From: a virus
Taxonomy: Duplodnaviria > Caudoviricetes
IMG/VR virus record: IMGVR_UViG_3300001687_000013
Span: 1-64,000 of that record
Reading direction: 5' to 3' (one strand)
Length of the DNA: 64,000 nucleotides
The translations under genes were made by a program, and so were the position numbers. This document shows, piece by piece, positions 895 to 35,407 of this stretch. Numbering within the stretch: position 1 is the stretch's first letter; each line of letters begins with the position of its first letter. The notes beneath the pieces are model-generated. The model was given only the letters and a program-made list of their open reading frames with translations. It did no database searches and was not told where the DNA came from.

Positions 895-1245
895 TTACTT
901 TATCCATTTAAACTCACCAAATTCATATTTGGCTTTTGTATCATTAGCATAATCTATAGCTAACTGATCCTTGTCTTTTTTACTGATGAATACTCTTACT
1001 CCAAATTCCTTTTCATACATCTTAATTCCAGCATCAATAATTCTCCCAAAGGCCCTTGCAGCTAACTTAGTTTCATAAGTACCTTTGTCTAATATTTTTA
1101 ATAGGTGTTTTACTGTTGGGATATAATATTCTTTATACCATTTCTGGGTATTATCCATATACATTTGAAGATTCTCAGGATCATTCATAATCTCTTCAGA
1201 GTCCATCTCTCCTATGAGTGTCAGAATATCTTTTGATTTACTCAT
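895..1245 (-). CDS. leader-bearing hypothetical protein
   Basis: revised start MSKSKDILTLIGE. Confidence 0.75.
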   Translation of the reverse strand: MSKSKDILTLIGEMDSEEIMNDPENLQMYMDNTQKWYKEYYIPTVKHLLKILDKGTYETKLAARAFGRIIDAGIKMYEKEFGVRVFISKKDKDQLAIDYANDTKAKYEFGEFKWIK

Positions 1246-2650
1246 TATCTTTTTTCTCCTCATCCTTAGGCTTAGTGCTCAAAACAAATTTTTTGCCTGG
1301 GTTTACCATAACCTTAGCTTTTTTCATAAAATATCTATTCAATAAAATAGGGGAGATCTTTGTTTCACGGTTAGTGAGAGTACATTTTATATTTGGATAC
1401 AAATCGTTATTAAATTCAATATCGAACTTTACAACTGGTCTCTCTTCCGTATGATCGTGAAATCCTCCAACTTCTGTATTCTGGATTTCTACCAGATCTC
1501 TTTTATATTTCTTACCCTTAAATGTCCAGGTAACAGTCTTTTTCTTTTCATCCATTGTGTATTCATCAGCATGAAGAGCACAATGATTACCATTGCCTGT
1601 ATCCAGCTTGGCAACAATGTCCCCGAACTCTTTTATGTGTATAGTCTCAAGATAACCACACTCCGTTGCTTTATATGTCCAGTTATTCTTATCACTAATA
1701 TAATCCAAGACCACTGAGACTATATCCTCTTTTGTAGCCTCTTCTATCCCCTCAGTCCCAGGGGAAGAATTTACTTCAATAACTCTGAGACCATCTTTTG
1801 TAGGAATAAAATCAACTCCTACCCATATTCCCCCCACTGCTTTAGCAGCTAACAAACAAGCCTCTTCCTCTTCCTTGGATAATTTATATTTCTTAACCTT
1901 TCCTCCCAGGGAGAAATTGGATCTAAAATCATCCTCTATAACATCACGTCTCATAGCTCCAATAACCTTGTCACCCAGGACGTGTGCCCTAACATCAAAA
2001 TCAGTTGGAACATACTCTTGAATTAAAAGCTCTGCTTCTTCATCAATTTTCCATATGACTTGAAGGATAGATGTGAGAGATTTCCTTGACTCAACAAAGA
2101 ATACTCCAATCCCATGAGACCCACTAAGCGTCTTTACAACAATAGGAAATTTGTCACCAATAATCCCCAAGGCATGATCAATACTTTTCTTATTTTGTAT
2201 AAGTGCAGTCTTTGGAGTGGATACTCCAATATCTGCCAACTTCAAAATAGTTCGATACTTATCTCCACATATTTCCATACAATCCCTATAATTGATACAG
2301 AAAAGTCCTGCTTTTTCAAGCTGGGAAATTAAGTCTAAAGTAGATCTAAATTTAGTTACAGACCCACGAACTAAAGCAACCGTTTCATGAGGATTAAACT
2401 CAAAATCTTTATTGTCTTCTGAACTGTGAATTATATATGAAACACTGTTTACCCTCTCAATAGTAGCATCATCAACAAATACTATATAGTTGGGGATCTT
2501 CCTTTTATCACAGGTCTCTTTAACTCTCCTGGCAGTAGTAAACAACTGATCCTTATTCTCTTCCGAACGACTTGTTATTATTAGGATTTTGAAGCCTTCT
2601 TTGGGGGCAGCTTCATAAAGCTTTTTTACAAATGAACTTGATTTATTCAT
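1238..2650 (-). CDS. rimK: RimK-family ATP-grasp ligase fused to C-terminal retropepsin-like (RimK-associated) protease; leader-bearing
   Basis: DKY, PKT, VVKTLSGSHGIGV, LIQEY, FRSNFSLGG, GVDFI, IEVNSSPG; C-terminal AKLDTGN...RPVV...LLNR; N-terminus MNKSSSFVKKLYEA. Confidence 0.9.
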   Translation of the reverse strand: MNKSSSFVKKLYEAAPKEGFKILIITSRSEENKDQLFTTARRVKETCDKRKIPNYIVFVDDATIERVNSVSYIIHSSEDNKDFEFNPHETVALVRGSVTKFRSTLDLISQLEKAGLFCINYRDCMEICGDKYRTILKLADIGVSTPKTALIQNKKSIDHALGIIGDKFPIVVKTLSGSHGIGVFFVESRKSLTSILQVIWKIDEEAELLIQEYVPTDFDVRAHVLGDKVIGAMRRDVIEDDFRSNFSLGGKVKKYKLSKEEEEACLLAAKAVGGIWVGVDFIPTKDGLRVIEVNSSPGTEGIEEATKEDIVSVVLDYISDKNNWTYKATECGYLETIHIKEFGDIVAKLDTGNGNHCALHADEYTMDEKKKTVTWTFKGKKYKRDLVEIQNTEVGGFHDHTEERPVVKFDIEFNNDLYPNIKCTLTNRETKISPILLNRYFMKKAKVMVNPGKKFVLSTKPKDEEKKDNE

Positions 2651-2655
2651 ATATC

Positions 2656-3153
2656 CTACTTCTTGAGAATTTTCAACACGAGTGACTTGTCATGTAAAAG
2701 CTTATTAACAATATATTGGGCCTTGGTTTTATCCATCCCATATTTAGCCATTACATACCGTTCCATCTCATCCACTTTTTTAGCATTCATAAGCTCCAAG
2801 AAATCTCTATCTTGAAGCAGTTCAGTAAATATAGGTTCTATAGGTTGTTGAATCCTTACAATCCCTACAGCCATTTTTGTAGGTTCTCCTAAATCATCCC
2901 TGGTGGTTACTCCTGTGTCCAGTCCTTCCTTCAATTCAAAGTCTGCTGAGAGAACAGGCATAGAGAAAACTTCATATCCACGATCCAGGGGTTTTACTTC
3001 CATACTTCTTCCAGAGGATCTAATGACTTCAAATCGATCCCCCTTAGCAATACGAACTTTTTTATCTGTACAATATGTAGAGACTCTGGCCCGAACAACA
3101 TCCCCAGGTTTGAACCCTTCGATTAATTTCAATGTGTAAGTTGATTTATTCAT
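2656..3153 (-). CDS. leader-bearing protein with SH3-like N-terminal domain
   Basis: MNKSTYTLKLIE then FKPGDVVRA...KGDRFEV. Confidence 0.75.
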   Translation of the reverse strand: MNKSTYTLKLIEGFKPGDVVRARVSTYCTDKKVRIAKGDRFEVIRSSGRSMEVKPLDRGYEVFSMPVLSADFELKEGLDTGVTTRDDLGEPTKMAVGIVRIQQPIEPIFTELLQDRDFLELMNAKKVDEMERYVMAKYGMDKTKAQYIVNKLLHDKSLVLKILKK

Positions 3154-3317
3154 TATTCAGGCTCCGTGTCATATCCGTGGCACTTTGGACAACGTACCTC
3201 ATAAGTATTCTTACTTAAATTCTTGGTGAACTTATGACCACATTCCATACATACCATTTTCACTTTTTCTTCGACAATATCCAGAAGCTCTAATATCTTC
3301 TTTGCAATACCTATCAT
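3153..3317 (-). CDS. leader-bearing zinc-ribbon protein (54 aa, not in ORF track)
   Basis: hand translation MIGIAKKILELLDIVEEKVKMVCMECGHKF...CPKCHGYDTEPE; GGAGG RBS; overlaps both neighbours. Confidence 0.75.
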   Translation of the reverse strand: MIGIAKKILELLDIVEEKVKMVCMECGHKFTKNLSKNTYEVRCPKCHGYDTEPE

Positions 3318-4525
3318 TTCATCATACCTCCTGTTGGGACTTCCCCTAACATATCTCTCGATGTGCTAACAACCTCTACTCTGGATAATTCTACCTGACC
3401 TTGGAAATCAGAACTTAGTGTTATTCCGTGGAGGTATTCAGTGTCATATCCATCTTTTGTGACCTTTGCTATAAAAGGCCCGTAATCCTTTGTAGGATTG
3501 GTGTCTAAGTTAAGTTTAAAATCTTCTGTATAAGACCCAGTATCATCAGGCCAGGTCTTTTGGCAATAGGATCTCTCTACCACCTGCTGAACTATGTTTC
3601 CATTGGAGTCAGTCATTACTGAAAATATTTGATCCCAATCAATATTAAATAGAGTAACAGTAGCATTTGGAATTGGGACTCCCCTACTATCTACTACCTT
3701 AAAATTAAATCTATGTTCACGTACAACCTTTGGGTTTCCAGTGACCCAGTATCGAAAGTTGACTTCCCAATTGTCAACATCAAAACCCTGACCCACATAA
3801 ATTGTTTTCTCGTCTGTACCACTGAAATGATCCTGAATATTTACCAGGGATTCATATTCTCTACAGTAGAGGTCTGTGACATGTTTCCCGTTCATCCACT
3901 CATCAGGTGTAATAGGCCAATAACCTACATTAAATATTTTGTCCCTTAATCCAATAGATTCAGGAACAAAAGATGAATAACCACGATAAATATTTTCAAG
4001 TGTATTGTTGTAATCACTTACCTCATTTCCACCCAGGAAATAACATCCATCTAATCGATTATTCCATAGACGACCCTTTGTACATGCAATTATACCAACT
4101 TGAGATCCTTTGTTTCTTATAGAACATCCATATAGATGTAATTCTCCATTGGTTTGATCATTCCACATGAGATAGGTTTGTGCTGCTTGTTGAAAGATAA
4201 AACCGACTCCACCAACACAATTATAGATATTCTCATTATTGGTATAACCAAATCTTAAGAATCCACTCTCAACTCTGATTATAAATCCACTACCACCAAT
4301 CATAGGATCAATTAAAGCTTGTTTGGTATCATCTACAACATAACTGTTTGTTATGATAACCCTACATTTCTGATAATACTGGAAGAGGTTTGCCCTAAGC
4401 ATAACATTCCACCCACCAGCTTGATCATATGTGTAAGTATCAGCGAAATAAAAATAAGGTGATCCGAATGTACCTTCCCCATCAATATATACTGTACTTG
4501 ATGGTTGATCATATGTTACTGACAT
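3314..4525 (-). CDS. putative virion protein, beta-helix-like region plus carboxypeptidase-regulatory-like beta-sandwich
   Basis: VVDSRGVPIPNATV...TDSNG...VTKDGY pattern; beta-rich N-terminal part. Confidence 0.6.
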   Translation of the reverse strand: MSVTYDQPSSTVYIDGEGTFGSPYFYFADTYTYDQAGGWNVMLRANLFQYYQKCRVIITNSYVVDDTKQALIDPMIGGSGFIIRVESGFLRFGYTNNENIYNCVGGVGFIFQQAAQTYLMWNDQTNGELHLYGCSIRNKGSQVGIIACTKGRLWNNRLDGCYFLGGNEVSDYNNTLENIYRGYSSFVPESIGLRDKIFNVGYWPITPDEWMNGKHVTDLYCREYESLVNIQDHFSGTDEKTIYVGQGFDVDNWEVNFRYWVTGNPKVVREHRFNFKVVDSRGVPIPNATVTLFNIDWDQIFSVMTDSNGNIVQQVVERSYCQKTWPDDTGSYTEDFKLNLDTNPTKDYGPFIAKVTKDGYDTEYLHGITLSSDFQGQVELSRVEVVSTSRDMLGEVPTGGMMK

Positions 4526-4526
4526 A

Positions 4527-4871
4527 TCATTCTCTCTTCTTCATATTCTTTATGAAGTCCATTACAGGTTTAGCTTCTATTGAGTCATAGACAAGCCTAT
4601 TGTCATAAAACTCATTAATTCCTTCTTGTTCCTTTAATTCTGATTCTTTTTCTTTTCGTGTAATACCTTCCCAATTTCTTGCATTTTTACAATAATAGTG
4701 GTGACAATCCCACTTGGGAGTATTTACACAAGCTTTAAAAAAAGCTCTTTTTTTCTCTTCTGGGAAATTGGGTGTTTCATCGAAGTGCCTGTCATTAACA
4801 CCCCAATAATTTTCCCGTAATCTATGATTATAGATCCTTTCAACATGATGTCTTCTAATGGCACGTTTCAT
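4527..4871 (-). CDS. basic hypothetical phage protein
   Basis: MKRAIRRHH...TPKWDCHHYYCKNAR. Confidence 0.65.
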   Translation of the reverse strand: MKRAIRRHHVERIYNHRLRENYWGVNDRHFDETPNFPEEKKRAFFKACVNTPKWDCHHYYCKNARNWEGITRKEKESELKEQEGINEFYDNRLVYDSIEAKPVMDFIKNMKKRE

Positions 4872-4980
4872 ATTTTTGCTCAATATCCAAACATTCTGTT
4901 CAAAATTTAAACAATAGTGTAAAAATCAGTTCGTTTAATTCTATAAACATCTCCATATTTATAATTTAATGTTGTTTTTG

Positions 4981-4997
4981 TTGGTATGCAATTTGCA
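4981..4997 (+). promoter_or_regulatory. sigma-54-type -24/-12 promoter
   Basis: TTGGTATGCAATTTGCA = TGG-N8-TTGC with exact spacing; followed by AAAGGAGG and an ATG. Confidence 0.6.
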
Positions 4998-5026
4998 TAT
5001 CTATAATAGTAAAGGAGGAAAACAAA

Positions 5027-5116
5027 ATGAACACCTTAATAATCATGATTGCAGCAGGGGGTATGATTTATGTTGCAAATTTATTAAGGTTCACACTGAT
5101 CCGAGTCCTTAGCTAA
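5027..5116 (+). CDS. 29-aa hydrophobic peptide
   Basis: AAAGGAGG RBS; MNTLIIMIAAGGMIYVANLLRFTLIRVLS. Confidence 0.6.
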   Translation: MNTLIIMIAAGGMIYVANLLRFTLIRVLS

Positions 5117-5122
5117 CTTAAT

Positions 5123-5185
5123 CTGGAAAATAGCCCTGGGTCTATGCTTTTAGAGTATAGTCTAATCTGGGCCTTCCAGGTTTTT
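5123..5185 (+). terminator. long hairpin with T-tract
   Basis: CTGGAA...GCCC...GGGC...TTCCAG followed by GTTTTT. Confidence 0.4.
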
Positions 5186-5243
5186 GAAAGTTGATTAAAA
5201 GGTTACAAATGACCGATAAGTAAGTATAAGGAGGATTACAAGT

Positions 5244-5315
5244 ATGATAATAACACCAAGAGTAATAATCTTAGTAATCTTACTTTTAATTGTATTACTT
5301 TTTCCTTTAGCATAA
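5244..5315 (+). CDS. 23-aa single-TM peptide
   Basis: AAGGAGG RBS; MIITPRVIILVILLLIVLLFPLA. Confidence 0.6.
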   Translation: MIITPRVIILVILLLIVLLFPLA

Positions 5316-5326
5316 AGGAGATAACC

Positions 5327-5539
5327 ATGATGATTTGCCCACTTACCCATAAAAAAGCAGTTTTAAAAAACTGTGTAAAAACTTGTCCAGGCCCTTGCCA
5401 AGAAATGAAAGAACTTTCCAAGAAGGAACAGGAAATGGAAAAAGCAGTTGTTGACTTAGCCACAAATATCCTTAGAGAGGAAGAGGAAGCCCGTAAGGTT
5501 CACAAACATGATGGAGGACTGGAAAGTTATGAAGACTAA
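5327..5539 (+). CDS. Cys-containing hypothetical protein
   Basis: AAGGAG RBS; CPL...C..TCPGPC. Confidence 0.65.
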   Translation: MMICPLTHKKAVLKNCVKTCPGPCQEMKELSKKEQEMEKAVVDLATNILREEEEARKVHKHDGGLESYED

Positions 5540-5756
5540 AAAAGCCTATAAAACTGTAATATTACCAGTGACCGTTCCTGACTCCGATTACTGTTGGAGG
5601 AAAGGTCAGATGGTATGTCCATATCTCGATACCTTCAAGAATCCTATTAAATGCAACTTAGGGTTTTGTGGTGTTCACTTTAATGAAAATGGTGTTATTC
5701 TTAAACCTGAAAGCTGTTTAAATCTAAAACCAGAAAGTAAACCGAAGAAAAATTAA
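5529..5756 (+). CDS. Cys-rich hypothetical protein
   Basis: overlaps previous gene; YCW...CPYL...C.LGF...KPESCL. Confidence 0.6.
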   Translation: MKTKKAYKTVILPVTVPDSDYCWRKGQMVCPYLDTFKNPIKCNLGFCGVHFNENGVILKPESCLNLKPESKPKKN

Positions 5757-5899
5757 CAAAATGTCGATAAGTATATATACGGGGGATAACAGAGAATGCA
5801 ACCCCCACCCATCGGCTAAGATCGGGCATGGTGAAATATCCACCCTGGCAAAGGCCGATATTAGAACATGCGTTGTGGGTGACACGATAAACCCTCATC

Positions 5900-5985
5900 A
5901 TCGGGCTTCGGGTCAAGTACCTCTTTTAGGGGTGTAGAGGGAAATGACCATATCCAGTTAATCACCCAATAGGATAAGCTCCGAT
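5900..5985 (+). ncRNA. structured RNA motif A, copy 1
   Basis: closing stem ATCGGGCTT/AAGCTCCGAT; AGTA-CCTCT..AGAGG-GAAA; loop GGGTG complementary to CACCC. Confidence 0.6.
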
Positions 5986-6290
5986 CCAATCCCTGGGGGG
6001 TTTGGAAGGTTCACCTGAAATCTTCCAGTTGTAGGTATCCTTAAACCTTCCGTTGGGGGCTACGTGAGTGCCCCTTTTATAAACCTTTAACTACCCGTTA
6101 AAGCTCAATCTCCTTGAATGGAGAAAGCCAGGGAGGAGGGGAAAACGATGTATTAATATGAAAATATTATAAATCATCGGATAGTTTTAATTTGCCAATT
6201 ATATTGCCTGGGAGTTTTTTCGTGGGTTTTTCTCCTTTGCAAAAAAACCTACATTGATTTTTCTCAGGCTTTTGAAAGTTACTTTATGGT

Positions 6291-6372
6291 AAGGGTCTGG
6301 TAAAGTACCTCTTCTAAGGGTGTAAGAGGGAAAGAAGTTCCGTACAGTTAATCACTCTATAGAGAGACCCTT
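6291..6372 (+). ncRNA. structured RNA motif A, copy 2
   Basis: closing stem AAGGGTCT/AGACCCTT; AGTA-CCTCTT..AAGAGG-GAAA; GGGTG/CACTC; CAGTTAATCAC shared with copy 1. Confidence 0.6.
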
Positions 6373-6420
6373 TTGGGTTGTGGGTGAGCCTTATGCCTTA
6401 ACTTAAAAACCCTCATTATA

Positions 6421-6552
6421 TGTAGTCATTTTTGTAGACAATATTAACTGGGTTCGATTCCCAGTGTCCCGAATGAGTATAACCTACTCAACCCTATTTG
6501 GGATAGGAGAGATGGTGTAATGGAAACACGGTCTACTTAAAAACGTGCCACA
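6421..6552 (+). ncRNA. circularly permuted tRNA-like RNA (YrlA-type Y RNA architecture)
   Basis: GTAGAC/GTCTAC stem encloses a T-arm (CTGGG TTCGATT CCCAG), a closed stem-loop, then a D-arm (GTGT AATGGAA ACAC). Confidence 0.65.
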
Positions 6553-6645
6553 CACGTTGCATGTCCTATCATTGGATAAAGGTTTGTAGATTTTCCTACT
6601 TAAAAATCCTACGTATTGAAAAAATGTTTTTCATAAATTAGAGTA

Positions 6646-6675
6646 AGGGGGAGAGTAACAAAAAATTCTCCCCCG
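6646..6675. terminator. GC-rich hairpin at convergent junction
   Basis: GGGGGAGA...TCTCCCCC. Confidence 0.45.
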
Positions 6676-6798
6676 ACCTCCAATCTTATAATTTCCTCTT
6701 CAGGAATACCCCCCAGAATAAGGCACTCGATTATCACACGACACTTACCCTTTGTAGAGCAACTTGTGTCTTAAAATGGACATGAGGGCCTTATTTGA

Positions 6799-7176
6799 TT
6801 ATCTTAAGAATCCGAACCCAATTATAGACTCTGGATCTATTGTAGGAAGATTCTTACTTGATAAAAAGTTATTTACCTGGTCAATTGTTGGGTTACTTAC
6901 CAATAGTTGTGAATATTCCCAAACAAATTTTTCCACAACCTCTTTGCCTCTTTCTTTATATTCTAAAGCTTTGGCAATTCCAGGATATTCACTGGCCCAA
7001 TATATATTTGTTAAAGCATTCTCAAAGTCATGCATTTTAAGTGCAGCTTGAGTAGCATCAAGACCTGTAAGAAGACCCACGATCCTGCCAGTCATATTTT
7101 CTATTTCTGCATCCAGCAATGTACCCTTTGGTAACACATAATCCAAAACCTCTAAAACTTGCTTTGCCTTGTTCAT
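6799..7176 (-). CDS. leader-bearing hypothetical protein
   Basis: MNKAKQVLEVLD. Confidence 0.8.
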   Translation of the reverse strand: MNKAKQVLEVLDYVLPKGTLLDAEIENMTGRIVGLLTGLDATQAALKMHDFENALTNIYWASEYPGIAKALEYKERGKEVVEKFVWEYSQLLVSNPTIDQVNNFLSSKNLPTIDPESIIGFGFLR

Positions 7177-7178
7177 AA

Positions 7179-7463
7179 TTAATCCAATCCTAAATTTTTA
7201 GCCTTATTTTTATCCCATACTACTTTTACTTTTGATCCTGCCCGTTTCATGGCCCAGGGAGATTTATCACCAAAAATCTTGTCATGTAGACTCATCCTGA
7301 TCTTATTGGCTTTATCAAAAGCATCTTTCACTTCTGGGGATACCCCACCAAAACTTAAACCATTTACAAAATCAAACCATTCAGCATAAATTTCAGCATC
7401 ATACTGACTGGGATATTTCTTTTGTTCATCTATTTCTTTTAACACTTCCTTAGCTGTCTTCAA
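7179..7463 (-). CDS. leader-bearing hypothetical protein
   Basis: (TTG) MKTAKEVLKEIDE. Confidence 0.8.
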   Translation of the reverse strand: MKTAKEVLKEIDEQKKYPSQYDAEIYAEWFDFVNGLSFGGVSPEVKDAFDKANKIRMSLHDKIFGDKSPWAMKRAGSKVKVVWDKNKAKNLGLD

Positions 7464-7714
7464 CCTTTTGCCTCCAACTCTTTTATTATTGAGTTTATTC
7501 TGTCAGTTGATATATTATTTCTTTGGAGAGTATTTTTGAATTTTTCCTTATCATGAAATATCTCCATATGACTACCTCTATATACTACGTAATATTTTTC
7601 CTTATCAATATATTTTCCTAAAGACTTTATACCACACCCATATATCTTTTCCAGTGGAATATGTGTTTGGTTCTGCTCAGATATTATGTCCAGTACGTCT
7701 CGTGCTTTAGTCAT
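7460..7714 (-). CDS. leader-bearing protein, paralog of 7714-7956
   Basis: MTKARDVLDIISE; GK...KEKYYV...DKEKF. Confidence 0.8.
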   Translation of the reverse strand: MTKARDVLDIISEQNQTHIPLEKIYGCGIKSLGKYIDKEKYYVVYRGSHMEIFHDKEKFKNTLQRNNISTDRINSIIKELEAKG

Positions 7715-7956
7715 TATCCTAAATCTTTCATTAATTTGGATACCATGTTTGCTGGTAGATTAACTTCATTCCTCAGGACGGATCTAAACTTTTCCTTATC
7801 CTTATATGTAGACTTTCCACCATTCTTGGCTATTACATAATACTCTTCTTTTCCTGCAACTTTACCAACTGCTTTAGCATCGGCACCAGGCCAAGACACA
7901 GGAAGTTCAGTTTTATTTGCTTCTATAAGACTGAGTATATCACTTGCCTTAACCAT
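7714..7956 (-). CDS. leader-bearing protein, paralog of 7460-7714
   Basis: MVKASDILSLIEA; GK...KEEYYV...DKEKF. Confidence 0.8.
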   Translation of the reverse strand: MVKASDILSLIEANKTELPVSWPGADAKAVGKVAGKEEYYVIAKNGGKSTYKDKEKFRSVLRNEVNLPANMVSKLMKDLG

Positions 7957-8186
7957 TATCTGTCACCTTTTTCAAAACCAATGCAATACTTTATGATCTG
8001 CTCTTCCAACTTCATAGCATCTTTAGCATTTGCACAATATAGATAACCAATATCTTTACCACCCTTGCTCTTTATGACAACATAATCTGCTTGTGGTTCA
8101 CTGGAACCCCTTATGGCAGTGACAATACCAAGTTTTACTGCTTCGTCTATTTCTAATAGCTCTTGTATTTTCTTTACCTTATTCAT
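7956..8186 (-). CDS. leader-bearing hypothetical protein
   Basis: MNKVKKIQELLE. Confidence 0.8.
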   Translation of the reverse strand: MNKVKKIQELLEIDEAVKLGIVTAIRGSSEPQADYVVIKSKGGKDIGYLYCANAKDAMKLEEQIIKYCIGFEKGDR

Positions 8187-8584
8187 TATGTCACCTTTCC
8201 AGCAAATCCATCACGGGCTTTTCCTTTATACCCCTTTTTCACGATGGTTTCCCCATTCCAATCGAAATCTTTACTGATAATATCATATAGGTTTCCAAAA
8301 TTCTTTTTTCTATCTATAATAGCATATGACTTAATCCCATAGAGATTACCATCAAGAGTATCATATATAAATTTACCTTCATCATAACCAACGTCAATAG
8401 TGACCATCTCTTTACCACGTTTATTCACATACACCTTATCAGCATTAATAAAAATCTTTTGTTTCCGTTGGACATCTTCTGTATAGGCCACAATTTTCTT
8501 TTGTAATTGAGAAGCAAATTTGTTACATAATACCAAGCTATCATCCTGTTCAAGGATATTCATTAATTCTTGTGCTTTACTCAT
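8186..8584 (-). CDS. leader-bearing protein, paralog of 8584-8964
   Basis: MSKAQELMNILE; GKFIYD..DG.LY.IK.Y..ID.KKNFG. Confidence 0.8.
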   Translation of the reverse strand: MSKAQELMNILEQDDSLVLCNKFASQLQKKIVAYTEDVQRKQKIFINADKVYVNKRGKEMVTIDVGYDEGKFIYDTLDGNLYGIKSYAIIDRKKNFGNLYDIISKDFDWNGETIVKKGYKGKARDGFAGKVT

Positions 8585-8964
8585 TATGCTATCCTTCCAG
8601 CATAACCATATTGGGTTCTGCCCTTCATACCTTTTGGCATAATTGAATAACCATCAAATTCAAAATCTTTTTTGACAATATCTTCTAATCTACCAAAATT
8701 TTTTTTCTTGTCAATAACTCCATATCCTTTGATAAAATATAGACAACCATCAATAGGATCATACATAAACTTTCCAGAACCACCAAGGTCTATTTTTATA
8801 TAAGATCTACCTGGTTTAACACTTACCTGACCTATTTTTATATTTGGATAAGTTTCTTTATAATACTTATCAACCTTAGTTTGGAGCATCTTAGCAAACT
8901 TTTGACATAAAGCTTCAGCTTCATTACCCTCAAAAATCTTTATAATTTTCTGTGATCTGTTCAT
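8584..8964 (-). CDS. leader-bearing protein, paralog of 8186-8584
   Basis: MNRSQKIIKIFE; GKFMYD..DG.LY.IK.Y..IDKKKNFG. Confidence 0.8.
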   Translation of the reverse strand: MNRSQKIIKIFEGNEAEALCQKFAKMLQTKVDKYYKETYPNIKIGQVSVKPGRSYIKIDLGGSGKFMYDPIDGCLYFIKGYGVIDKKKNFGRLEDIVKKDFEFDGYSIMPKGMKGRTQYGYAGRIA

Positions 8965-9353
8965 TAATCCTCCACTCCTGCATCCTTCTCCATCTTGGCA
9001 AGACGTGTATAATAGTCATCTATTTCTGCCAGATGATCAAGAGCAATCCTTTCAGCTATTAAAGGATTGGAAGTATGTTCCATTTCTACCTTTATACCCA
9101 TTTCTAATTGCTTAGAATCTACCTTATCCTTGGTGATCCCTTTTTCTTTGGCTCTTCCCTGTGCAAACATGTCAGAAATAACTTTATAAATCATCTCTTC
9201 AAATTTATGTTCATTAATCTTATTAGCCTCTGCAAAAGCATGAACTTCTTTATCAGGGGGATTTGGATTCTTCTTAAAGAACTCAATTATCTTAACTTCT
9301 ATATTGTTATCCTGCTCATCGAATTGAGCTAAGAATTGTTTTGCCTTACCCAT
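8964..9353 (-). CDS. leader-bearing DUF5661-like protein
   Basis: MGKAKQFLAQFDE; QLEMGIKVEMEHT...IALDHLAE..DYYTRL. Confidence 0.75.
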   Translation of the reverse strand: MGKAKQFLAQFDEQDNNIEVKIIEFFKKNPNPPDKEVHAFAEANKINEHKFEEMIYKVISDMFAQGRAKEKGITKDKVDSKQLEMGIKVEMEHTSNPLIAERIALDHLAEIDDYYTRLAKMEKDAGVED

Positions 9354-9575: not shown

Positions 9576-9577
9576 AT

Positions 9578-25841: not shown

Positions 25842-25853
25842 AATCTTATTCCT

Positions 25854-27150: not shown

Positions 27151-27410
27151 AATTTGAGATCCTTTTGTATTCGATCAAATATCCAATCAAGAGGAACTCC
27201 CGACCGTCCCTTAGCAACTCCTGTAGGCATTTCCCCAGAGTTAAGGTAAAAATCATAAAGCTTACCCTCTAATTCACTACCTTCTATCTCTAACTCACCA
27301 GCTACCCAGTCCTTCAAGGTTTTTATATCTTTGGCACTTAGAAGTTTTTTTAACTGATCACCAAGACTCTTACCTTCTACAAGTTTAAGGACATCTTTAG
27401 CTGTTATCAT
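27147..27410 (-). CDS. leader-bearing hypothetical protein
   Basis: MITAKDVLKLVEG; LYDFY...GEMP.GVAK.R.G.P..WI. Confidence 0.8.
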   Translation of the reverse strand: MITAKDVLKLVEGKSLGDQLKKLLSAKDIKTLKDWVAGELEIEGSELEGKLYDFYLNSGEMPTGVAKGRSGVPLDWIFDRIQKDLKL

Positions 27411-27637
27411 GCTTTTTCTCCCATACCTAATCCACCAGATTTCTTAGGTTTCATATAATAATCGAGAGTCATTGCATCAACAGCCTCATTTTCCTCTAAA
27501 CTCTTCTTACAAGCCTTGACTAAACTATCAAAAGTATAATCTTTATAATAACGATAATATTGTTTAGCTACCCTGGCAGCTTCTTGATCAGTAACTTTCA
27601 TTTCTAAGAGCTTCTTTAACTCAGTAGCTTTAGACAT
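27407..27637 (-). CDS. leader-bearing hypothetical protein
   Basis: MSKATELKKLLE. Confidence 0.8.
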   Translation of the reverse strand: MSKATELKKLLEMKVTDQEAARVAKQYYRYYKDYTFDSLVKACKKSLEENEAVDAMTLDYYMKPKKSGGLGMGEKA

Positions 27638-27640
27638 AAT

Positions 27641-27850
27641 TTAATCCATTTTCTTTCTGGCTTTAATAAGCTGTTCCATCTTCTTCTGAAGAGCTTCCAC
27701 CTTCTCATCTAAAGCTTCTTTGGCTTTCTTATCAATAAGGCTATAGATATCTTCACTGATATCCTTAATATCCTTTGCTAAGGTTTGAGTAATCTCTGCC
27801 CATTGTTCCTTAGTGGTGTACTCTGATAATATTCTTTTTGCTGTGTTCAT
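27641..27850 (-). CDS. leader-bearing coiled-coil protein
   Basis: MNTAKRILSE. Confidence 0.75.
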   Translation of the reverse strand: MNTAKRILSEYTTKEQWAEITQTLAKDIKDISEDIYSLIDKKAKEALDEKVEALQKKMEQLIKARKKMD

Positions 27851-27866
27851 TAATATAATTCTCCTG

Positions 27867-28120
27867 TTAAGGGTTTAGTAGCATGTTTGCTAAATCTTCC
27901 ATTTCCTTCACAGCATCTTTAAGAGCTTTAGATGCATTATCAAGATCAGAGGCCATATTATATTTGCTGAACTTGGAAAAGCCTTATATGATTTCTGAAC
28001 CTTATCAGTTATACTCTTCAGAGTATCATAGACACTTTTCCACTTCTTTGCAAGCCCAGTGTTTTGTTCAGATAACTTCACAAACTCACTGAACTCAATT
28101 AAATTTTTAGCTTGAGACAT
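27867..28120 (-). pseudogene. leader-bearing coiled-coil gene with apparent 1-nt deletion
   Basis: adding one A near 27964 gives FPSSAKYNMASDLDNASKALKDAVKEMEDLANMLLNP*, matching P.SAK[YH] in 28515-28745 and 28742-28972. Confidence 0.6.
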
Positions 28121-28146
28121 TATTTAAAGCTTGAGACATTATTTAA
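28109..28146. repeat. 19-bp perfect tandem duplication
   Basis: AGCTTGAGACATTATTTAA x2, covering a stop codon and the first leader codons. Confidence 0.9.
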
Positions 28147-28502
28147 CCCTCTTGTTTTGTATTGTCCTGGAACTTCCATCCGAACTTTCTGGCAAACTCA
28201 GCCAATTTTGAAATCATGTCTGGTAGATTTTCAGGGGCTTTACCCTCTACTGATACTTGTAATGTAACGATAGCATCATCCCATAGTTTGTTTAAGACCA
28301 AACTTCCATCTGGGTATGAAATTGTCATAGTTTCAGTATTTTCAGTTGTACTCTTCTTGATCTGATCAGGTTTAAGATCAAACATGTTTCTTACGAACTG
28401 TTGCATAAAATTACCAAACATGTCAGAGGTCTTCTCAGGAGCATCATCCTCATGAATTCCTATACCTAATAGTTTGATTAATTCGTTAGCTTTTGTTGAC
28501 AT
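28143..28502 (-). CDS. leader-bearing hypothetical protein
   Basis: MSTKANELIKLLG. Confidence 0.75.
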   Translation of the reverse strand: MSTKANELIKLLGIGIHEDDAPEKTSDMFGNFMQQFVRNMFDLKPDQIKKSTTENTETMTISYPDGSLVLNKLWDDAIVTLQVSVEGKAPENLPDMISKLAEFARKFGWKFQDNTKQEG

Positions 28503-28514
28503 ATCAAATTTCTC

Positions 28515-28745
28515 CTATTTCATATTAAAAATTTTCTTATACTCATGGATCTTCTTCTCATGTTTCTTGAGTATAATTGTGTGTTTAGCACTCTCTGGAA
28601 ATGACTGCATAAGTTTCATTAATTCATCTGACATCTTAATTAAATCTTCTATAACGATTTTTGCGTGTTTAAGATCAGACAATTGTTCCGAAACCTCCTC
28701 AGGTTTACCTTCATGTATTTTCTTGAGCTTAGTTAAAATTTTCAT
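28515..28745 (-). CDS. helical protein, paralog of 28742-28972
   Basis: LSDLKHAK..I..LIKMSDEL...PESAKH. Confidence 0.75.
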   Translation of the reverse strand: MKILTKLKKIHEGKPEEVSEQLSDLKHAKIVIEDLIKMSDELMKLMQSFPESAKHTIILKKHEKKIHEYKKIFNMK

Positions 28746-28972
28746 TTTAACTCGTTCTTAAATACTGTCTTCATCTTTTTGATAGTATCACTATAATTTT
28801 TTAGTGTTTTATCATATTTAGCACTCTCTGGCATTGTACCTAAAATCTCCAATAATTCATCACACATTTTGATTAAAGTAATTATTGAAAATTTAGCATT
28901 TTTTAAATCACCCAGAGTAATACTTTCTTCCAGTTTCCTAAATTTTCTTAGTAATCCAAATTCTATTTCCAT
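28742..28972 (-). CDS. helical protein, paralog of 28515-28745
   Basis: LGDLKNAK..I..LIKMCDEL...PESAKY. Confidence 0.75.
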   Translation of the reverse strand: MEIEFGLLRKFRKLEESITLGDLKNAKFSIITLIKMCDELLEILGTMPESAKYDKTLKNYSDTIKKMKTVFKNELK

Positions 28973-28975
28973 AAT

Positions 28976-29692
28976 TTATGCCTTCTGTTTGTTTCCTAAA
29001 GCATTGCCATAACTTCTACCAACCTTTATTAACGTTTTTACATCCACAGGAACTACTAAAGTTTTCATTCCAACACCAGGATTAGCAAGCATGGCTTGTC
29101 CATATCGGTGATGACCATCTAATATATAACCATCAGAAGAACTTATTACAGTAGCTTCTGTTACAGAAGAACCAGTAATTGGTAAACCAAATTTAATAAT
29201 ATTACCAACAAGTTTTTCTAACCAAATCTGTGATTGACTTGGTAGAAGTTTATTTGCTGCTTCCCTTGTTATGATTGCTTTGATTTTATCATCTGTTGGA
29301 TGATTATCTTTAAAACCAAGTACAATCCATTCGTCAGCAGCCTTCTTATTTTTCTCTAATCCTTTTGGTGTAAATAATTTACCTTTGGCATATGGAGCAA
29401 AAATATCAACTTGACCTTTACCCAGGTCATCCTTAAACTTAGGAAAATCTTTGGGTTCTATTACAGGCATTTCCTTTCTTGGAATATCTATTGCTTTCTT
29501 ACAAGCCTTTTGAAGCTCTATATAATTCTTATCAAAGTTGGGTATCTCTTTATTAAGATCCTTCCCAGCCTTTTCAAACTCTGCTTCAGCATAGGCCCTG
29601 GCTTTTGTCAGTGGGAGAGTAGCAATATTTAATTTAAAACCTCCTTCAGAGACAGCTTCTATGAGTTCCAAGATATTTATTGCCTTGACCAT
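28976..29692 (-). CDS. leader-bearing ParB/Srx-fold protein
   Basis: MVKAINILELIEA; PR.EMPVI...L.PSQSQI...SSDGYILDGHHRY. Confidence 0.75.
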   Translation of the reverse strand: MVKAINILELIEAVSEGGFKLNIATLPLTKARAYAEAEFEKAGKDLNKEIPNFDKNYIELQKACKKAIDIPRKEMPVIEPKDFPKFKDDLGKGQVDIFAPYAKGKLFTPKGLEKNKKAADEWIVLGFKDNHPTDDKIKAIITREAANKLLPSQSQIWLEKLVGNIIKFGLPITGSSVTEATVISSSDGYILDGHHRYGQAMLANPGVGMKTLVVPVDVKTLIKVGRSYGNALGNKQKA

Positions 29693-29704
29693 TATCTCTC
29701 CTCC

Positions 29705-29965
29705 TTATGGTTTAGGATAAGTCCATATCTCTGTACCATCCTTGAAAGTTACAAGTGCTGACCATTTTCCAAAATCGGTACTCCATTGCCACCCATGTAT
29801 CTTTTTGGGCTTTTCATATCCATAGTCCTTTTGGAATAACTTAGCATCGGGGATCTTCCCCCATACTTGTCTCATCCTATCATCTGAACCTACAGGATAC
29901 CCATCTTTTCCTCTTTGATAAAGCTTTTCCTCAAAAATGTTTAATATTTTTTGAGCTTTATTCAT
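29705..29965 (-). CDS. leader-bearing hypothetical protein
   Basis: revised start MNKAQKILNIFEE. Confidence 0.8.
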   Translation of the reverse strand: MNKAQKILNIFEEKLYQRGKDGYPVGSDDRMRQVWGKIPDAKLFQKDYGYEKPKKIHGWQWSTDFGKWSALVTFKDGTEIWTYPKP

Positions 29966-30157: not shown

Positions 30158-30231
30158 CGGTTGGGAGGGGATTTGAACCCCCATCTTCTGCCTTGACAGG
30201 GCAGTGTCCTGACCGATTAGACGACCCAACC
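30158..30231 (-). tRNA. tRNA-Asp(GUC), no encoded CCA
   Basis: GGTTGGG TC GTCT..GGAC A CTGCC CTGTCAA GGCAG .. GGGGG TTCAAAT CCCCT CCCAACC G. Confidence 0.9.
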
Positions 30232-31182: not shown

Positions 31183-31425
31183 TTATTTGTAATCGTCAGG
31201 ATTCATCTTTGATGTAAAATCATCCAGTGCTTTCATAAATTTATTACTCCTGGGATCTTCACTTAAAGCAACACCCTTAAGTAACTGAACAGCTTTCATT
31301 TGCTCTTCATTAGACCCACCCCAGGAAGTCTTAATTAATTCAGCAATAATTTTGCTAACATCCACTTTTTCTGTCTTTTCGTCTTGTTCACCAAATCTTT
31401 GAACAAACTCTGTAGCTTTACTCAT
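31183..31425 (-). CDS. leader-bearing hypothetical protein
   Basis: MSKATEFVQRFGE. Confidence 0.8.
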   Translation of the reverse strand: MSKATEFVQRFGEQDEKTEKVDVSKIIAELIKTSWGGSNEEQMKAVQLLKGVALSEDPRSNKFMKALDDFTSKMNPDDYK

Positions 31426-31428
31426 CTT

Positions 31429-31740
31429 TTATAAAACCTCCACTAATCCAGCGTAACCTTTTCGCTCATTGTAATTCATAACAAATGTTTTTCTACTAAA
31501 TTTCATAGTAACAGTGGTATCTGAAGTCCCCCAAGGTTTATAATTTACAATGTTATCATTGTCAGGAGAATCATACTGATATAAGTAATCAAACATCTCT
31601 TGTTCATCAGAATCAAAAAAACCACTTAGACCTTTTCCACCAGTACCTTTGAAATCATTAAAATCTTGAGAATCTTGTAGAAAGATTATTTCTCTATATT
31701 TAGCTTCAAATAAGTTTAAAACTTCACTTGCTGTTTTCAT
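31429..31740 (-). CDS. leader-bearing hypothetical protein
   Basis: MKTASEVLNLFEA. Confidence 0.8.
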   Translation of the reverse strand: MKTASEVLNLFEAKYREIIFLQDSQDFNDFKGTGGKGLSGFFDSDEQEMFDYLYQYDSPDNDNIVNYKPWGTSDTTVTMKFSRKTFVMNYNERKGYAGLVEVL

Positions 31741-31988
31741 TATTTTCCTCTATACTTCTTATAAAATGCCTCAAACTTATTTTGATTCTTGTTAAGTAAT
31801 TCCGCAATAAAGTTAGTCAGAGCATCCAATTCTACTGGATATAAAGCTCTTTCCTTATAATCTCTATGAAGATTAACAAGAGGTTTTCCATCCTTAGTAA
31901 CTATTTGTCCAGATACAACCTTTACAGGAAAAATATTATTACTAAGTTCTTGCTCAAACATTTTAGAAAACTCTTTTGCTTTACTCAT
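31740..31988 (-). CDS. leader-bearing hypothetical protein
   Basis: MSKAKEFSKMFE. Confidence 0.8.
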   Translation of the reverse strand: MSKAKEFSKMFEQELSNNIFPVKVVSGQIVTKDGKPLVNLHRDYKERALYPVELDALTNFIAELLNKNQNKFEAFYKKYRGK

Positions 31989-32230
31989 TATTTCTCTTCC
32001 TTACCGTTACCATTTCCACCTATTTTTGCTGGCATATCACCCATACCAATATTGAGAATATGGATTAGTCTCTGAGCTTTGTTCAAATCTTCAGCATCAG
32101 GAACAACCGTTAGCTCTGCACCACAATTTGGGCAGTTTACAGGATACTTACCTGGATATACAGGTAATGTAGTCCCACATTCTATACATACCCTTGAAAT
32201 TGGGAGTTTTTGTTCATTTATTTTACTCAT
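31988..32230 (-). CDS. zinc-ribbon protein
   Basis: CIECG...CPNCG; internal leader-like LNKAQRLIHIL. Confidence 0.75.
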   Translation of the reverse strand: MSKINEQKLPISRVCIECGTTLPVYPGKYPVNCPNCGAELTVVPDAEDLNKAQRLIHILNIGMGDMPAKIGGNGNGKEEK

Positions 32231-32244
32231 GTTAAAAATTCCTC

Positions 32245-32604
32245 CTAACCCTTAAACAATAAATAGGGACTTTCACCCTCTTGATCGAACTTTATAAAAT
32301 TCTTGTTCTTTTCAATATCTTTTATTTGACTTCGTTCCAGACCTACTCCACTATGATGAGCATACAACTCTGGATTTGTCACCTTATATACATCTTGACC
32401 TGATCCTTCATAATTATGGAGCAGATAAATCTGTAGATGATCCCTCTTCCACCCTAACTTTTTCAATGTATGCTGAATATCACTTGGTAGGTCTATAAAC
32501 TTTATATACTTCATACTCTCATCTACTAAAGTTCTTGCCTTCTTAAGATCCCTCATCCCTTTAGTACCATCTAAGAGATCTATAAACTTCTGTGCTTTAC
32601 TCAT
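32245..32604 (-). CDS. leader-bearing hypothetical protein
   Basis: MSKAQKFIDLLD; IKFIDLPSDIQ resembles 32774-33058. Confidence 0.8.
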   Translation of the reverse strand: MSKAQKFIDLLDGTKGMRDLKKARTLVDESMKYIKFIDLPSDIQHTLKKLGWKRDHLQIYLLHNYEGSGQDVYKVTNPELYAHHSGVGLERSQIKDIEKNKNFIKFDQEGESPYLLFKG

Positions 32605-32773
32605 TAACACTCTACTCCATCTTCTTCTCTATCAATATAAAATTCACAGTTTTCTTCATCTTCAAGAACTTCAAGGCCCAGGTTCCTACATAGACTTTTT
32701 AAGATCCCTTTAGGGACAATATAATAACCCCTATCCCAAAGATCTCTTATGTCAGACAATTCCACATTTTCCC

Positions 32774-33058
32774 CTATTTCCTGATCTCTATTACAAGCAC
32801 TGGTTCAGTACCCAGAGTATCAACCCGTATTTCATACAATTTAGGAAATCTGGCTAACTTTTCTAACCTATCCTTCTTAATAGCTGCAAAAGAGGAATAT
32901 ATCATATAAAAGCCAGAACCAGACCAGATCCTATCTATGATACTTTTGTACATCCCAGAAGAGTCAAGTATTTTCTGTACATCTGGTGGAAGTTGCTCAA
33001 ATGTAATCTTCTCTCCTCTAATCTGTTCTTCAAGCTCTATAATTTGTCTTGATAACAT
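32774..33058 (-). CDS. hypothetical protein with leader-like start
   Basis: MLSRQIIELEE; ITFEQLPPDVQ. Confidence 0.75.
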   Translation of the reverse strand: MLSRQIIELEEQIRGEKITFEQLPPDVQKILDSSGMYKSIIDRIWSGSGFYMIYSSFAAIKKDRLEKLARFPKLYEIRVDTLGTEPVLVIEIRK

Positions 33059-33060
33059 TT

Positions 33061-33270
33061 TTACCTTCCTGGTATCTGACCTTCATAACGGCAGGTCATT
33101 GGTCTCCCACATTGAGGGCACATAACCTCATTACAAGGAGTCCCTAAAGGTTTATGTTCTGTTGTAGGCTGACCCAAACCATCAGAGCAAAAAGGACATA
33201 TACATACCTCATCCCCTGGTGATTGTGGAAGAGCATTTAATAATTCTAAAATATCTTTAGCTTTTTTCAT
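33061..33270 (-). CDS. leader-bearing zinc-finger protein
   Basis: revised start MKKAKDILELLN; CICPFC...H..G.PC...CPQCG.PM. Confidence 0.75.
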   Translation of the reverse strand: MKKAKDILELLNALPQSPGDEVCICPFCSDGLGQPTTEHKPLGTPCNEVMCPQCGRPMTCRYEGQIPGR

Positions 33271-33272
33271 AT

Positions 33273-33677
33273 TTACATCCTTTGTATTACCCATTCCATT
33301 GTAATATCACCTGTAGCATTGGCTCCATCATTATTAACAAAATACAAGTAGATTTGTTTAGCTGCTACATCATCATAATTAGCGAATAAAATATCTACTA
33401 TCTCATTACATACTAAGTTTATTCCTGTCTTAGCAAATAAAGTATATATTGAATTTCCTGCTGTAGGATCAATCCCAGTTTTATCCAATACATAGATATC
33501 GTAATCTGTTGATGCACAAACTATCCGTATAGATTCTACACGACCGTTGTATACAGGTAAAGGAATGGTAATTTCTTCTTCTGAAGTTACAGCTATACTA
33601 TCAGCAACATATAATGTTGACTGATAACTGTAAGCAGTATTAAAAACTTTTGCACTTACTTGTGTAGCGACTGACAT
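33273..33677 (-). CDS. beta-sandwich virion-type protein
   Basis: GAGGT RBS; small-residue, beta-strand-rich. Confidence 0.6.
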   Translation of the reverse strand: MSVATQVSAKVFNTAYSYQSTLYVADSIAVTSEEEITIPLPVYNGRVESIRIVCASTDYDIYVLDKTGIDPTAGNSIYTLFAKTGINLVCNEIVDILFANYDDVAAKQIYLYFVNNDGANATGDITMEWVIQRM

Positions 33678-33689
33678 TAATTACCTCTC

Positions 33690-34028
33690 CTAACACATTT
33701 GTTTCTTTTTACAAATATTCAACATTCTATTAAAATGTGGTTTACTCCTCTTAAGTCTCTCTTTATCTTTAATTGAAGCCTCTTTGTATAACCGTTGTTT
33801 TCTAAACCAAGCTAAAACTACATTCATTTCTTTCTTAAACTCAAAAGTGACATAATAACCCTTACCCCCTCTGAAATGACCACTGAATTCCCAACCACCT
33901 TGAGCATACTCACATATAGCTTTTAATTTAGCTACTTCATACTCTTGTTCATCCATTCCATCAATACCTTTAGGATAAACAACATGTTTACAAACAGTAA
34001 CTTTTTTAAATGGATTTAATTTTTTCAT
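33690..34028 (-). CDS. hypothetical protein
   Basis: GGAG RBS; ORF track. Confidence 0.65.
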   Translation of the reverse strand: MKKLNPFKKVTVCKHVVYPKGIDGMDEQEYEVAKLKAICEYAQGGWEFSGHFRGGKGYYVTFEFKKEMNVVLAWFRKQRLYKEASIKDKERLKRSKPHFNRMLNICKKKQMC

Positions 34029-34051
34029 ATACTTAATCTCCCATATATTTA

Positions 34052-34600
34052 TTATCCAAACAACTTACTTAAGAGACCTTTTTCTTTCTCTTCTCGTGTT
34101 TGTTTTAACTTATTTCGACCCCATGCAGTTACACCCATAACAGCACCAGGAATAGTAAATAGTAAGAATATATTAAAAACAAATTGTGGCATTGTGTTCA
34201 TAACAGCAGGATTATTCATCTTAACTGCCATTTTGAATGTGTCAATTAACACTACAATAACATATCCAAAACATCCACAGGACATAAAAGCCCATGCTGG
34301 TCTCCATGCCTTCTGATACCATTTATCAGCTTTTGTGTCATATTCTATCATTGTCTTGGCTACAACACCCATTTGCTCAGTATCAATCTTCCGCATATCT
34401 TTTTCGTATTCTTGAGTAGCCTTCATAACTTCTAATTGAGTTTCAGGGGGGAGTTCTTTACCCTTAAGTTCTCCCATAGCATCTTCTAAGACACTTACTG
34501 CATTCTCTACTTTATTCTTTTTGCTTCCAAACAGGCCCTTTATTTTAGAAATTGATTTGAATAATTTAATTCCTCCGAATATTAGACTAATTGGTTCCAT
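34052..34600 (-). CDS. holin-like protein (3TM/GTA-holin type)
   Basis: KWYQKAWRPAW motif followed by two hydrophobic helices and GR..K. Confidence 0.7.
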   Translation of the reverse strand: MEPISLIFGGIKLFKSISKIKGLFGSKKNKVENAVSVLEDAMGELKGKELPPETQLEVMKATQEYEKDMRKIDTEQMGVVAKTMIEYDTKADKWYQKAWRPAWAFMSCGCFGYVIVVLIDTFKMAVKMNNPAVMNTMPQFVFNIFLLFTIPGAVMGVTAWGRNKLKQTREEKEKGLLSKLFG

Positions 34601-34853
34601 AACTATCTCCATTTACATAAATTCTTGTTTCTTTCTTAGCAGTATCATTGACCATATTTACCAGGTCAATATAATACTCTGTAGACAGAAACTCTCTCTC
34701 TTCCTCTTTATAAGGCCCAGTTTGTTTTCTATCTTCAATTCCCCTTACAATTGTATTTGCTGCTTTCATCAAGATATCTTTTGTTTCCTCATCATAATCA
34801 TCGTCAGGAATAGGCCCATTTATTTCATTAATTAATTGTTTAGCTTTAGTCAT
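34587..34853 (-). CDS. leader-bearing acidic protein
   Basis: MTKAKQLINE. Confidence 0.75.
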   Translation of the reverse strand: MTKAKQLINEINGPIPDDDYDEETKDILMKAANTIVRGIEDRKQTGPYKEEEREFLSTEYYIDLVNMVNDTAKKETRIYVNGDSYGTN

Positions 34854-35155
34854 ATTTTAGCTATCCTCCTGGCTATATTAATCATTCTCATAGCTTGAGT
34901 CTGATCCATATTAGTAGCAATTGCCAAAATAGATAATGCTGTACTGATATTTAACCGTGTATCCATATCTTCAGCAACAGCATAGTTGGAAGCCAGTTGT
35001 ATAGTGGTAGTTACGAGTAACCTACTTAATCCACTATTATTAGCCTCTTCTATTTGTTCAGGATCTTCTATTCTATTCTTTTCAGCATCTTCCAAAGCAG
35101 AAAGAGCTATATCTTTAGCTTCTTCCATTGAAATTTTATTATCCTGATCTGACAT
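34850..35155 (-). CDS. hypothetical helical protein
   Basis: AAGGT RBS; ORF track. Confidence 0.7.
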   Translation of the reverse strand: MSDQDNKISMEEAKDIALSALEDAEKNRIEDPEQIEEANNSGLSRLLVTTTIQLASNYAVAEDMDTRLNISTALSILAIATNMDQTQAMRMINIARRIAKI

Positions 35156-35167
35156 AATGTACCTTTC

Positions 35168-35407
35168 TTACTTTACAACTTTGTGGGGAAATTTATCTTC
35201 CTCATAACTCACTTTTACTGTTGACCCATCAATAGCTTCCAGTTCTAATTCAATCTTTCCACCCTTCTTGGTCATCTTGATCACTTCTACAACACTTCCC
35301 TTTGGGATATCCTCAACATCAAATGCCAATTTTATCTGAGCACCTTTTCTTAAAGCTGCTTCAACCATGTTGTAGTAAAGTTCTGAAAATTCTTTAGCTT
35401 TACTCAT
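35168..35407 (-). CDS. leader-bearing SH3-like protein
   Basis: MSKAKEFSELYYNMVEA; LRKGAQIKL..D...IPKGSVVEV. Confidence 0.8.
   Translation of the reverse strand: MSKAKEFSELYYNMVEAALRKGAQIKLAFDVEDIPKGSVVEVIKMTKKGGKIELELEAIDGSTVKVSYEEDKFPHKVVK

Follow-up and report, generated by a model that had tools for sequence, protein, structure and literature searches.

The first 64,000 nucleotides (the window) of the 98-kb IMG/VR contig IMGVR_UViG_3300001687_000013, which is estimated to be 44% complete, carry genes that lie nearly all on the minus strand, and many of the encoded proteins begin with one short N-terminal leader, hereafter called the tag, with the consensus M-x-K-[AS]-x-[DEKQ]-[ILV]-L-x-[LI]-[ILF]-E-[EAG]. 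We scored N termini with a 12-column profile in leave-one-out mode and counted proteins scoring ≥6 as tagged. On the whole contig, 66 of 169 genes were tagged, or 67 with a small open reading frame (ORF) found afterwards at 3153-3317. Between positions 895 and 35407, 57 of 87 genes were tagged (56 plus the small ORF, score 13.8), and seven borderline genes (1238, 13258, 22451, 27641, 27908, 29980, and 30258, named by their first position) brought the number to 64, in agreement with the 60 to 65 ORFs of the original prediction.

The array, all on the minus strand, begins with a tagged 116-amino-acid (aa) protein of no known function (895-1245, score 21.3) and a fusion of a RimK-family ATP-grasp ligase with a Zn-protease-like domain (1238-2650; Pfam RimK, E = 6.5e-42; Zn_protease, E = 6.9e-9), whose degenerate leader ends in Glu and scores a borderline 1.8. 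These are followed by a tagged gene at 2656-3153 (score 15.8) and by the small ORF mentioned above, which encodes a 54-aa tagged protein with Zn-ribbon-like PHROG hits. The longest block, at 6799-16242, is a run of 28 consecutive abutting genes encoding proteins of 66 to 252 aa; all 28 carry the leader as claimed, with scores from 5.7 to 27.2. This run includes a DUF5661 protein (8964-9353; Pfam, E = 1e-15) and the paralog pairs 7460/7714, 8186/8584, and 15039/15641. Directly downstream of it, about 1 kb (5756-6799) has no called gene, and Rfam detected there only a 17-nucleotide T-arm-like tmRNA fragment (6448-6464, E = 0.024). At its other end, the array is broken by an untagged signal-peptide protein with a hydrophobic segment (16242-16700, score 0.4), after which come five tagged genes at 16710-19639 (16710, 17267, 18102, 18415, and 19106) and, at 20592-23590, the tagged genes 20592, 21162, 21496, and 23327 (scores 15 to 19) together with the borderline 22451, which scores 3.8 and has an ortholog in the close relative L036 that scores 10.6. 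The gene at 23600-24232 (leader score 12.2) encodes a protein with a C-terminal Tad6 domain (23603-24025). Nine more tagged genes (24614, 25854, 26117, 26611, 27147, 27407, 28143, 28976, and 29705; scores 13.8 to 26.5) and the borderline 27641 and 27908 occupy 24614-29965, and at 31183-35407 the tagged genes 31183, 31429, 31740, 32245, 32774, 33061, 34587, and 35168 (scores 7.9 to 22.6) are mixed with untagged ones. tRNA genes also occur in the array: tRNA-Thr and tRNA-Pro (18951-19104) sit between the tagged genes 18415 and 19106, and tRNA-Asp lies at 30158-30231. Outside 895-35407, the tag is found on a gene within the tail-fiber region (43449-43841, score 16.9), on a basic-tailed, prohead core/scaffolding-like protein (48583-48945; phrog_3503 head scaffolding protein, E = 1.5e-7), and on eight genes past position 64000.

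We then examined the leader itself. None of 413 internal Met positions scored ≥6. The starts were not chosen to fit the motif: a motif-blind gene caller, which called 162 genes, placed 62 starts in front of the tag, and for 59 of the 66 tagged genes the start fell -12 to +15 nucleotides from the upstream stop codon. Column information was 1.1 to 3.0 bits from the residue before Lys through the residue after Glu, and 0.15 to 0.41 bits (background, 0.25) further on. Similarity, claimed to stop right after the Glu at the onset of the folded domain, thus ends one residue later, and the folded domain does not always follow directly: about 55 extra residues separate the leader from the Tad6 domain in 23600-24232. 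In the ADP-ribosyltransferase (ART)-like proteins 17267 and 18415, the Y-H strand starts 4 to 5 residues past the Glu. The Glu occupied the canonical column in 43 of 66 leaders and the canonical or next column in 57, and the predicted propeptide was 12 residues long in 37 of the 43. The leaders form a Lys-rich amphipathic helix (hydrophobic moment, 0.46 versus 0.30 for shuffled sequences), with a single Pro in 528 positions. When head proteins were searched for internal copies of the leader's C-terminal half, no clear enrichment was seen, and the regions upstream of the arrays showed no evident common late-promoter motif.

As claimed, proteins not expected in a phage head lacked the tag: the signal-peptide protein 16242, the DUF1353-like protein 24244, the J-domain protein 50352, and 33 tail, baseplate, and head-shell genes all scored <6. 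The tail genes of the window include a second tail-sheath paralog (53452-56487, minus strand; phrog_23, E = 4e-68, residues 438 to 1007) with a long unrelated N-terminal region ahead of the sheath domain, 22 kb away from the main sheath gene.

Past position 64,000, the contig encodes tail sheath, capsid, scaffold, protease, and terminase. The gp23-type major capsid protein (contig 84849-86297) and the scaffold (86345-87007) are followed by a gp21-type (S77) head maturation protease (87197-87871; phrog_207, E = 9e-25), which appears intact, as His, Ser, and Asp all occupy catalytic positions in an alignment with T4 gp21. The capsid propeptide ends about 70 residues in, at a hydrophobic-x-E-[ASDE]-D site conserved in 16/16 aligned relatives; processing of T4 gp23 removes 65 residues (PMC9958956). 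A single-protein capsid query against viral contigs returned no matches, and relatives were found instead by a capsid alignment search. The closest cultured phages by capsid identity are Thermus phage phiLo (41%) and Yersinia phage YerA41 and Cobetia phage Carin-5 (both 36%), followed by Rhizobium phage RHph_TM30 (32%) and Ralstonia phage RP13 (29%). The phage is a large myovirus with a gp23-like capsid and a gp21-type protease, kin of phiLo, YerA41, and RP13. In its closest relative, L007, a 265-aa ORF interrupts the major capsid gene (8320-11008), which suggests an intron that encodes a homing endonuclease, and the terminase contains an intein with a LAGLIDADG motif.

We next looked into the distribution of the tag. 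The same leader was found across the family (L009, L016, L040, L043, L046, and RP13). A near-complete relative, G001 (237 kb, 95% complete, capsid 28% identical to that of the contig), carries it on 59 of 186 genes of the structural (late) arm and on only 2 of 188 genes elsewhere (P = 4e-18). The contig itself is without replication genes; in G001, the motif was thus not equally common on replication and early genes. Since only four tagged proteins of the contig have a detectable G001 homolog, the tag is far more conserved than its cargo. Turnover is also visible at short range, as the L036 array, though syntenic with that of the contig, includes 31 tagged genes of which 8 lack a counterpart on the contig. 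No tagged genes were seen near the head genes in the parts of the genomes examined from thermophile relatives (phiLo, L008, and L010 to L013). One head-region gene (L002 4384-4947, corresponding to contig 82401-82967) starts with a leader-like sequence and encodes a C-x-C...C-x-C-K-H zinc motif. It is conserved in L007, L018, and L040; in G001, its homolog is leaderless and located outside the late arm. In the literature searched, coverage of which was incomplete, we found no published account of this leader, nor of mass tagging within the family.

The end of the leader was compared with the sites expected to be cut by the prohead protease of the same phage. In the scaffold, core, and capsid propeptide of the contig, L or I stands at P3, the first residue of the [LI]-x-E motif, in 7 of 12 sites versus 31 of 156 in the background (P = 0.006), and the leaders have L or I at P3 in 39 of 43 cases; G001 and RP13 agree. 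The YerA41 scaffold has 11 x-x-E-[SAG] sites, and K occupies P3 in 9 of them versus 12 of 323 in the background (P = 1e-10); the YerA41 leader ends in K-F-E, and Carin-5 shows the same trend. The leader end therefore seems to match the specificity of each phage's own prohead protease, itself predicted from these sites. The correspondence is suggestive and does not amount to statistical co-evolution, because the switch between K and L/I is one evolutionary event, shared by YerA41 and Carin-5.

Evidence from virions came from YerA41, for which mass spectrometry found 63 of 201 proteins to be particle associated (PMC7354516, Table S2). We re-analyzed this table, matching its rows with GenBank genes on the basis of their order and length. 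In a label-blind k-mer ranking, KFEA came first among YerA41 N-terminal 4-mers, and the cognate leader pattern, [LMV]-x-x-K-F-E within the first 30 residues, picked out seven proteins (g059, g066, g205, g206, and g208 to g210). All seven were particle associated, versus 56 of 194 others (P = 2e-4). The enrichment held among proteins of ≤200 aa (6/6 tagged versus 17/116 untagged; P = 2.5e-5) and among small late proteins (5/5 versus 6/24; P = 0.004). The presence in virions expected from the original prediction was thus seen, as particle association, in this relative. The mature parts of the seven proteins are unrelated except for one weak pair, and two of them are orthologs of 1238 (the RimK-like ligase, 34% identical to g066) and 23600 (Tad6-like). 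YerA41 shares with the contig the phage family, the leader spacing, and two orthologous cargo proteins, detected there in virions; it differs in having only seven tagged proteins and a K-F-E ending. In the main text of PMC7354516, we found no mention of an N-terminal leader or of its cleavage.

The tagged proteins of the contig are small (median, 110 aa), 74% are basic, and none has a membrane segment. They are mostly unrelated, as claimed, apart from six small paralog groups that hold 14 of the 66 proteins. About 85% are without annotation in Pfam, PHROG, or NCBIfam. The clearest exception is 23600-24232, which matches the Tad6 family PF25188 (E = 4.2e-30; 100.8 bits versus a cut-off of 27; profile positions 8 to 145 of 145) and is predicted to act as a type I Thoeris inhibitor; Tad6 co-purifies with the Thoeris sensor ThsB and blocks it (PMC13728456). 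A comparison of this protein with solved structures gave no match. Most of 38 Tad6 homologs begin directly with the domain and have no leader, whereas in the protein studied here a leader and spacer precede it; the Tad6 copies of this phage, L036, G001, YerA41, and RP13 all bear the leader of the family. No description of virion delivery was found in the Tad6 literature examined. The RP13 leaders (L059 1672-13813 and L060 4896-5815) score up to 20.3 on the contig's profile, including that of the Tad6 homolog ORF131, and the tagged Tad6 of G001 (G001:C1:70904-71372; L019 and L020) is split over two frames (profile positions 6 to 77 and 76 to 145) by either a frameshift or a sequencing error. 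An unrelated 254-kb jumbo phage, L035, has a different, more T4-like Glu-ended leader at 1080-15834, borne by a Tad6, an ART-PolyVal-like protein, a polyA/CCA polymerase, and neighboring proteins.

Other cargo also resembles enzymes. The proteins 17267, which resembles a PARP/DarT-like cluster (Atlas feature 0.91; TM 0.50/0.60), and 18415, with a weak DUF3990 match (E = 3.5e-4), are ART-like; for 18415, a fold predicted from the single sequence was of no use (pLDDT, 42) and was set aside. Protein 28976 is ParB/Srx-like (Atlas ParBc_2 cluster, 0.95), and the tagged cargo of G001 includes ART-PolyVal and SprT-like domains. Among the homologs of 48583, many bear the same type of leader and one lies two genes from an S77 protease, and we infer that 48583 is a gp68-like prohead core component. 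Given the match of 48583 to a head scaffolding family and the leader shared by many of its homologs, part of the tagged set probably consists of core components and not of effectors. The mass injection of anti-defense effectors put forward in the original prediction is thus supported in part, by one curated anti-defense domain (Tad6) and a few ART-like and RimK enzymes; against it stand at least one core-like tagged protein and the large unannotated share.

The nearest known parallel is the capsid-targeting sequence (CTS) of T4, which directs IPI, IPII, IPIII, and Alt into the head and is removed by gp21 (PMC9958956, PMC9026906). As here, a short N-terminal peptide ending in [LI]-x-E precedes unrelated small, mostly basic proteins, and a gp23-like capsid and a gp21-like protease are encoded in the same genome. 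The cargo includes anti-defense and ART-type proteins, the ART-like proteins of G001 and the contig recalling T4 Alt, and tRNA genes lie among the cargo genes, T4 ipI also being located beside a tRNA cluster. The two leaders differ in sequence and hydrophobic register, in length (10 residues in T4 versus 12), and in number (3 to 4 tagged genes versus about 65 to 70 per genome), and T4 belongs to a separate phage family, its gp23 being only a distant relative of the contig's capsid (E ~1e-4). We rejected identity with the T4 sequence, as the T4 N termini score between -3 and -12 on our profile (ipI, -11.7; ipII, -6.9; ipIII, -2.8), and the CTS scores -9.5 when anchored at the Glu. The leader appears to work like the T4 CTS yet is a different sequence, as originally proposed. 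In SPN3US and phiKZ, many head proteins are cut after Glu by a gp21-homologous protease, and their propeptides are thought to target the prohead (PMC5694885); in contrast, most of these propeptides are long (20 to >100 residues), and they have no shared consensus, short shared N termini being found between paralogs only.

We propose, with good confidence, that the leader is a prohead-targeting propeptide, which docks its passenger on the core and is cut after the Glu, part of the cargo being delivered with the DNA. Late in infection, the 11- to 13-residue amphipathic helix would bind the assembling scaffold core through a hydrophobic face formed by the A/S, I/L/V, L, L/I, and I/L/F columns and carry the passenger into the prohead. 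The gp21-type protease would then free the passenger by cutting behind the Glu of [LI]-x-E, just as it would process the capsid propeptide and the scaffold. Passengers would be core and head components mixed with small soluble effectors (Tad6, ART-like, RimK-like ligase, and ParB-like proteins), and the latter would probably be delivered with the DNA, which is the weakest step of the scheme. Genes may acquire the tag by recombination or duplication, leading to a fast turnover of the repertoire. The original idea that the leader targets proteins to the head and is taken off by the prohead protease is well supported by inference from the YerA41 virions, the covariation at P3, the restriction to the late arm, and the intact protease, and none of the three refuting conditions named with that prediction, as far as they could be examined, spoke against it.

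Several points weigh against this proposal. A particle-associated protein need not lie within the head, and contaminants may be present among the 63 YerA41 proteins, which include topoisomerases and a reductase. The GenBank "structural" labels had been seen before the YerA41 pattern was fixed, five of the seven tagged YerA41 genes share one operon, and g059 and g066 are middle expressed. The YerA41 leaders score low on the contig's profile (-13 to 5.9), their homology being drawn from the shared spacing and the two orthologs, and the YerA41 capsid propeptide retains an L-x-E site. The single origin of the P3 switch counts here as well, as do the 9 of 66 leaders in which neither the canonical column nor the next one holds a Glu and the scaffold, protease, and capsid genes, which themselves have no leader.

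Other explanations were weighed against the same data. If the shared start were a nucleotide-level feature, such as a translation-initiation element or a recombination cassette with the peptide as a by-product, the tight abutment of the genes would fit, and so would the coding of Ser at the second motif column, by TCA in 15 of 18 cases (about 32% expected). TCA is one base from the Ala codon GCA, and this bias is suggestive of a single ancestral leader sequence that recombination has spread. However, leader pairs sharing a residue use the same codon in 52% of cases versus 49% expected from untagged N termini, and in 22 ortholog pairs with L036 (leader, 50% identical; body, 57%) the hydrophobic pattern columns are 45 to 77% identical while the exposed ones have drifted to 14 to 32%. 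Selection therefore acts on the peptide pattern, which the amphipathicity of the helix also favors. Conservation was thus at the protein level and not, as would have spoken against the original prediction, at the DNA level; we rejected a DNA-level element, which seems extremely unlikely. An amphipathic, Lys-rich, nearly Pro-free helix could also be a membrane anchor, a degron, or a docking helix for a compartment unrelated to the head, and the Glu-less leaders would suit such a role. We consider this very unlikely in view of the detection in YerA41 virions, the late-arm restriction, and the P3 covariation. Moreover, targeting and processing by the T4 CTS rely on different positions, Asp at the cut site blocking processing and not targeting (PMC9026906), so that Glu-less leaders would be accounted for by head targeting too.

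The presence of a RimK-like ligase/protease gene within the array raised the question of whether the leader serves to be recognized by a phage-encoded modifying enzyme, such as the RimK/Zn-protease fusion or a radical-SAM enzyme acting in the manner of a maturase of ribosomally synthesized and post-translationally modified peptides, and not for packaging. Yet the RimK protein itself bears a leader, the P3 residue follows the scaffold sites, and G001, with about 65 tags, has neither a RimK match nor a radical-SAM match above cut-off; on this last ground we rejected the idea, to which we attach hardly any probability. Alternatively, the leader may mark structural filler or core proteins that are packaged and then largely degraded or kept in the head, with few or no injected effectors. 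The resemblance of 48583 to a core family, the several tagged genes that are conserved among the head genes across distant relatives, the mostly basic cargo, and the degradation of T4 gp67, gp68, and gp22 (PMC9958956) speak for it. However, Tad6, ART-PolyVal, SprT-like, RimK, and ParB-like domains act in the host cytoplasm, and the fast turnover of the array in L036 fits host conflict and not architecture, making this explanation improbable.

Prohead targeting with partial delivery thus remains the reading that we favor. A wider version of it is possible, although we lean against it: large myoviruses of the YerA41/phiLo/RP13 group may pre-load up to about 70 proteins per virion via a tag tuned to their own protease, most of these proteins being undiscovered injected anti-defense or host-takeover effectors, and the tag may package foreign proteins. 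The cultured relatives YerA41, RP13, and Carin-5 carry the tag and virion spectra of YerA41 exist, so the key prediction is directly testable. If it is true, the internal-protein trick of T4 would become, in another phage family, a genome-scale cargo system engaging about one-third of the late genes, and a second packaging tag would be gained. A sequence rule would then pick virion-delivered effectors from thousands of hypothetical proteins, with Tad6 as a positive control in five genomes, and the tag alone would predict new anti-defense proteins and could package foreign ones.

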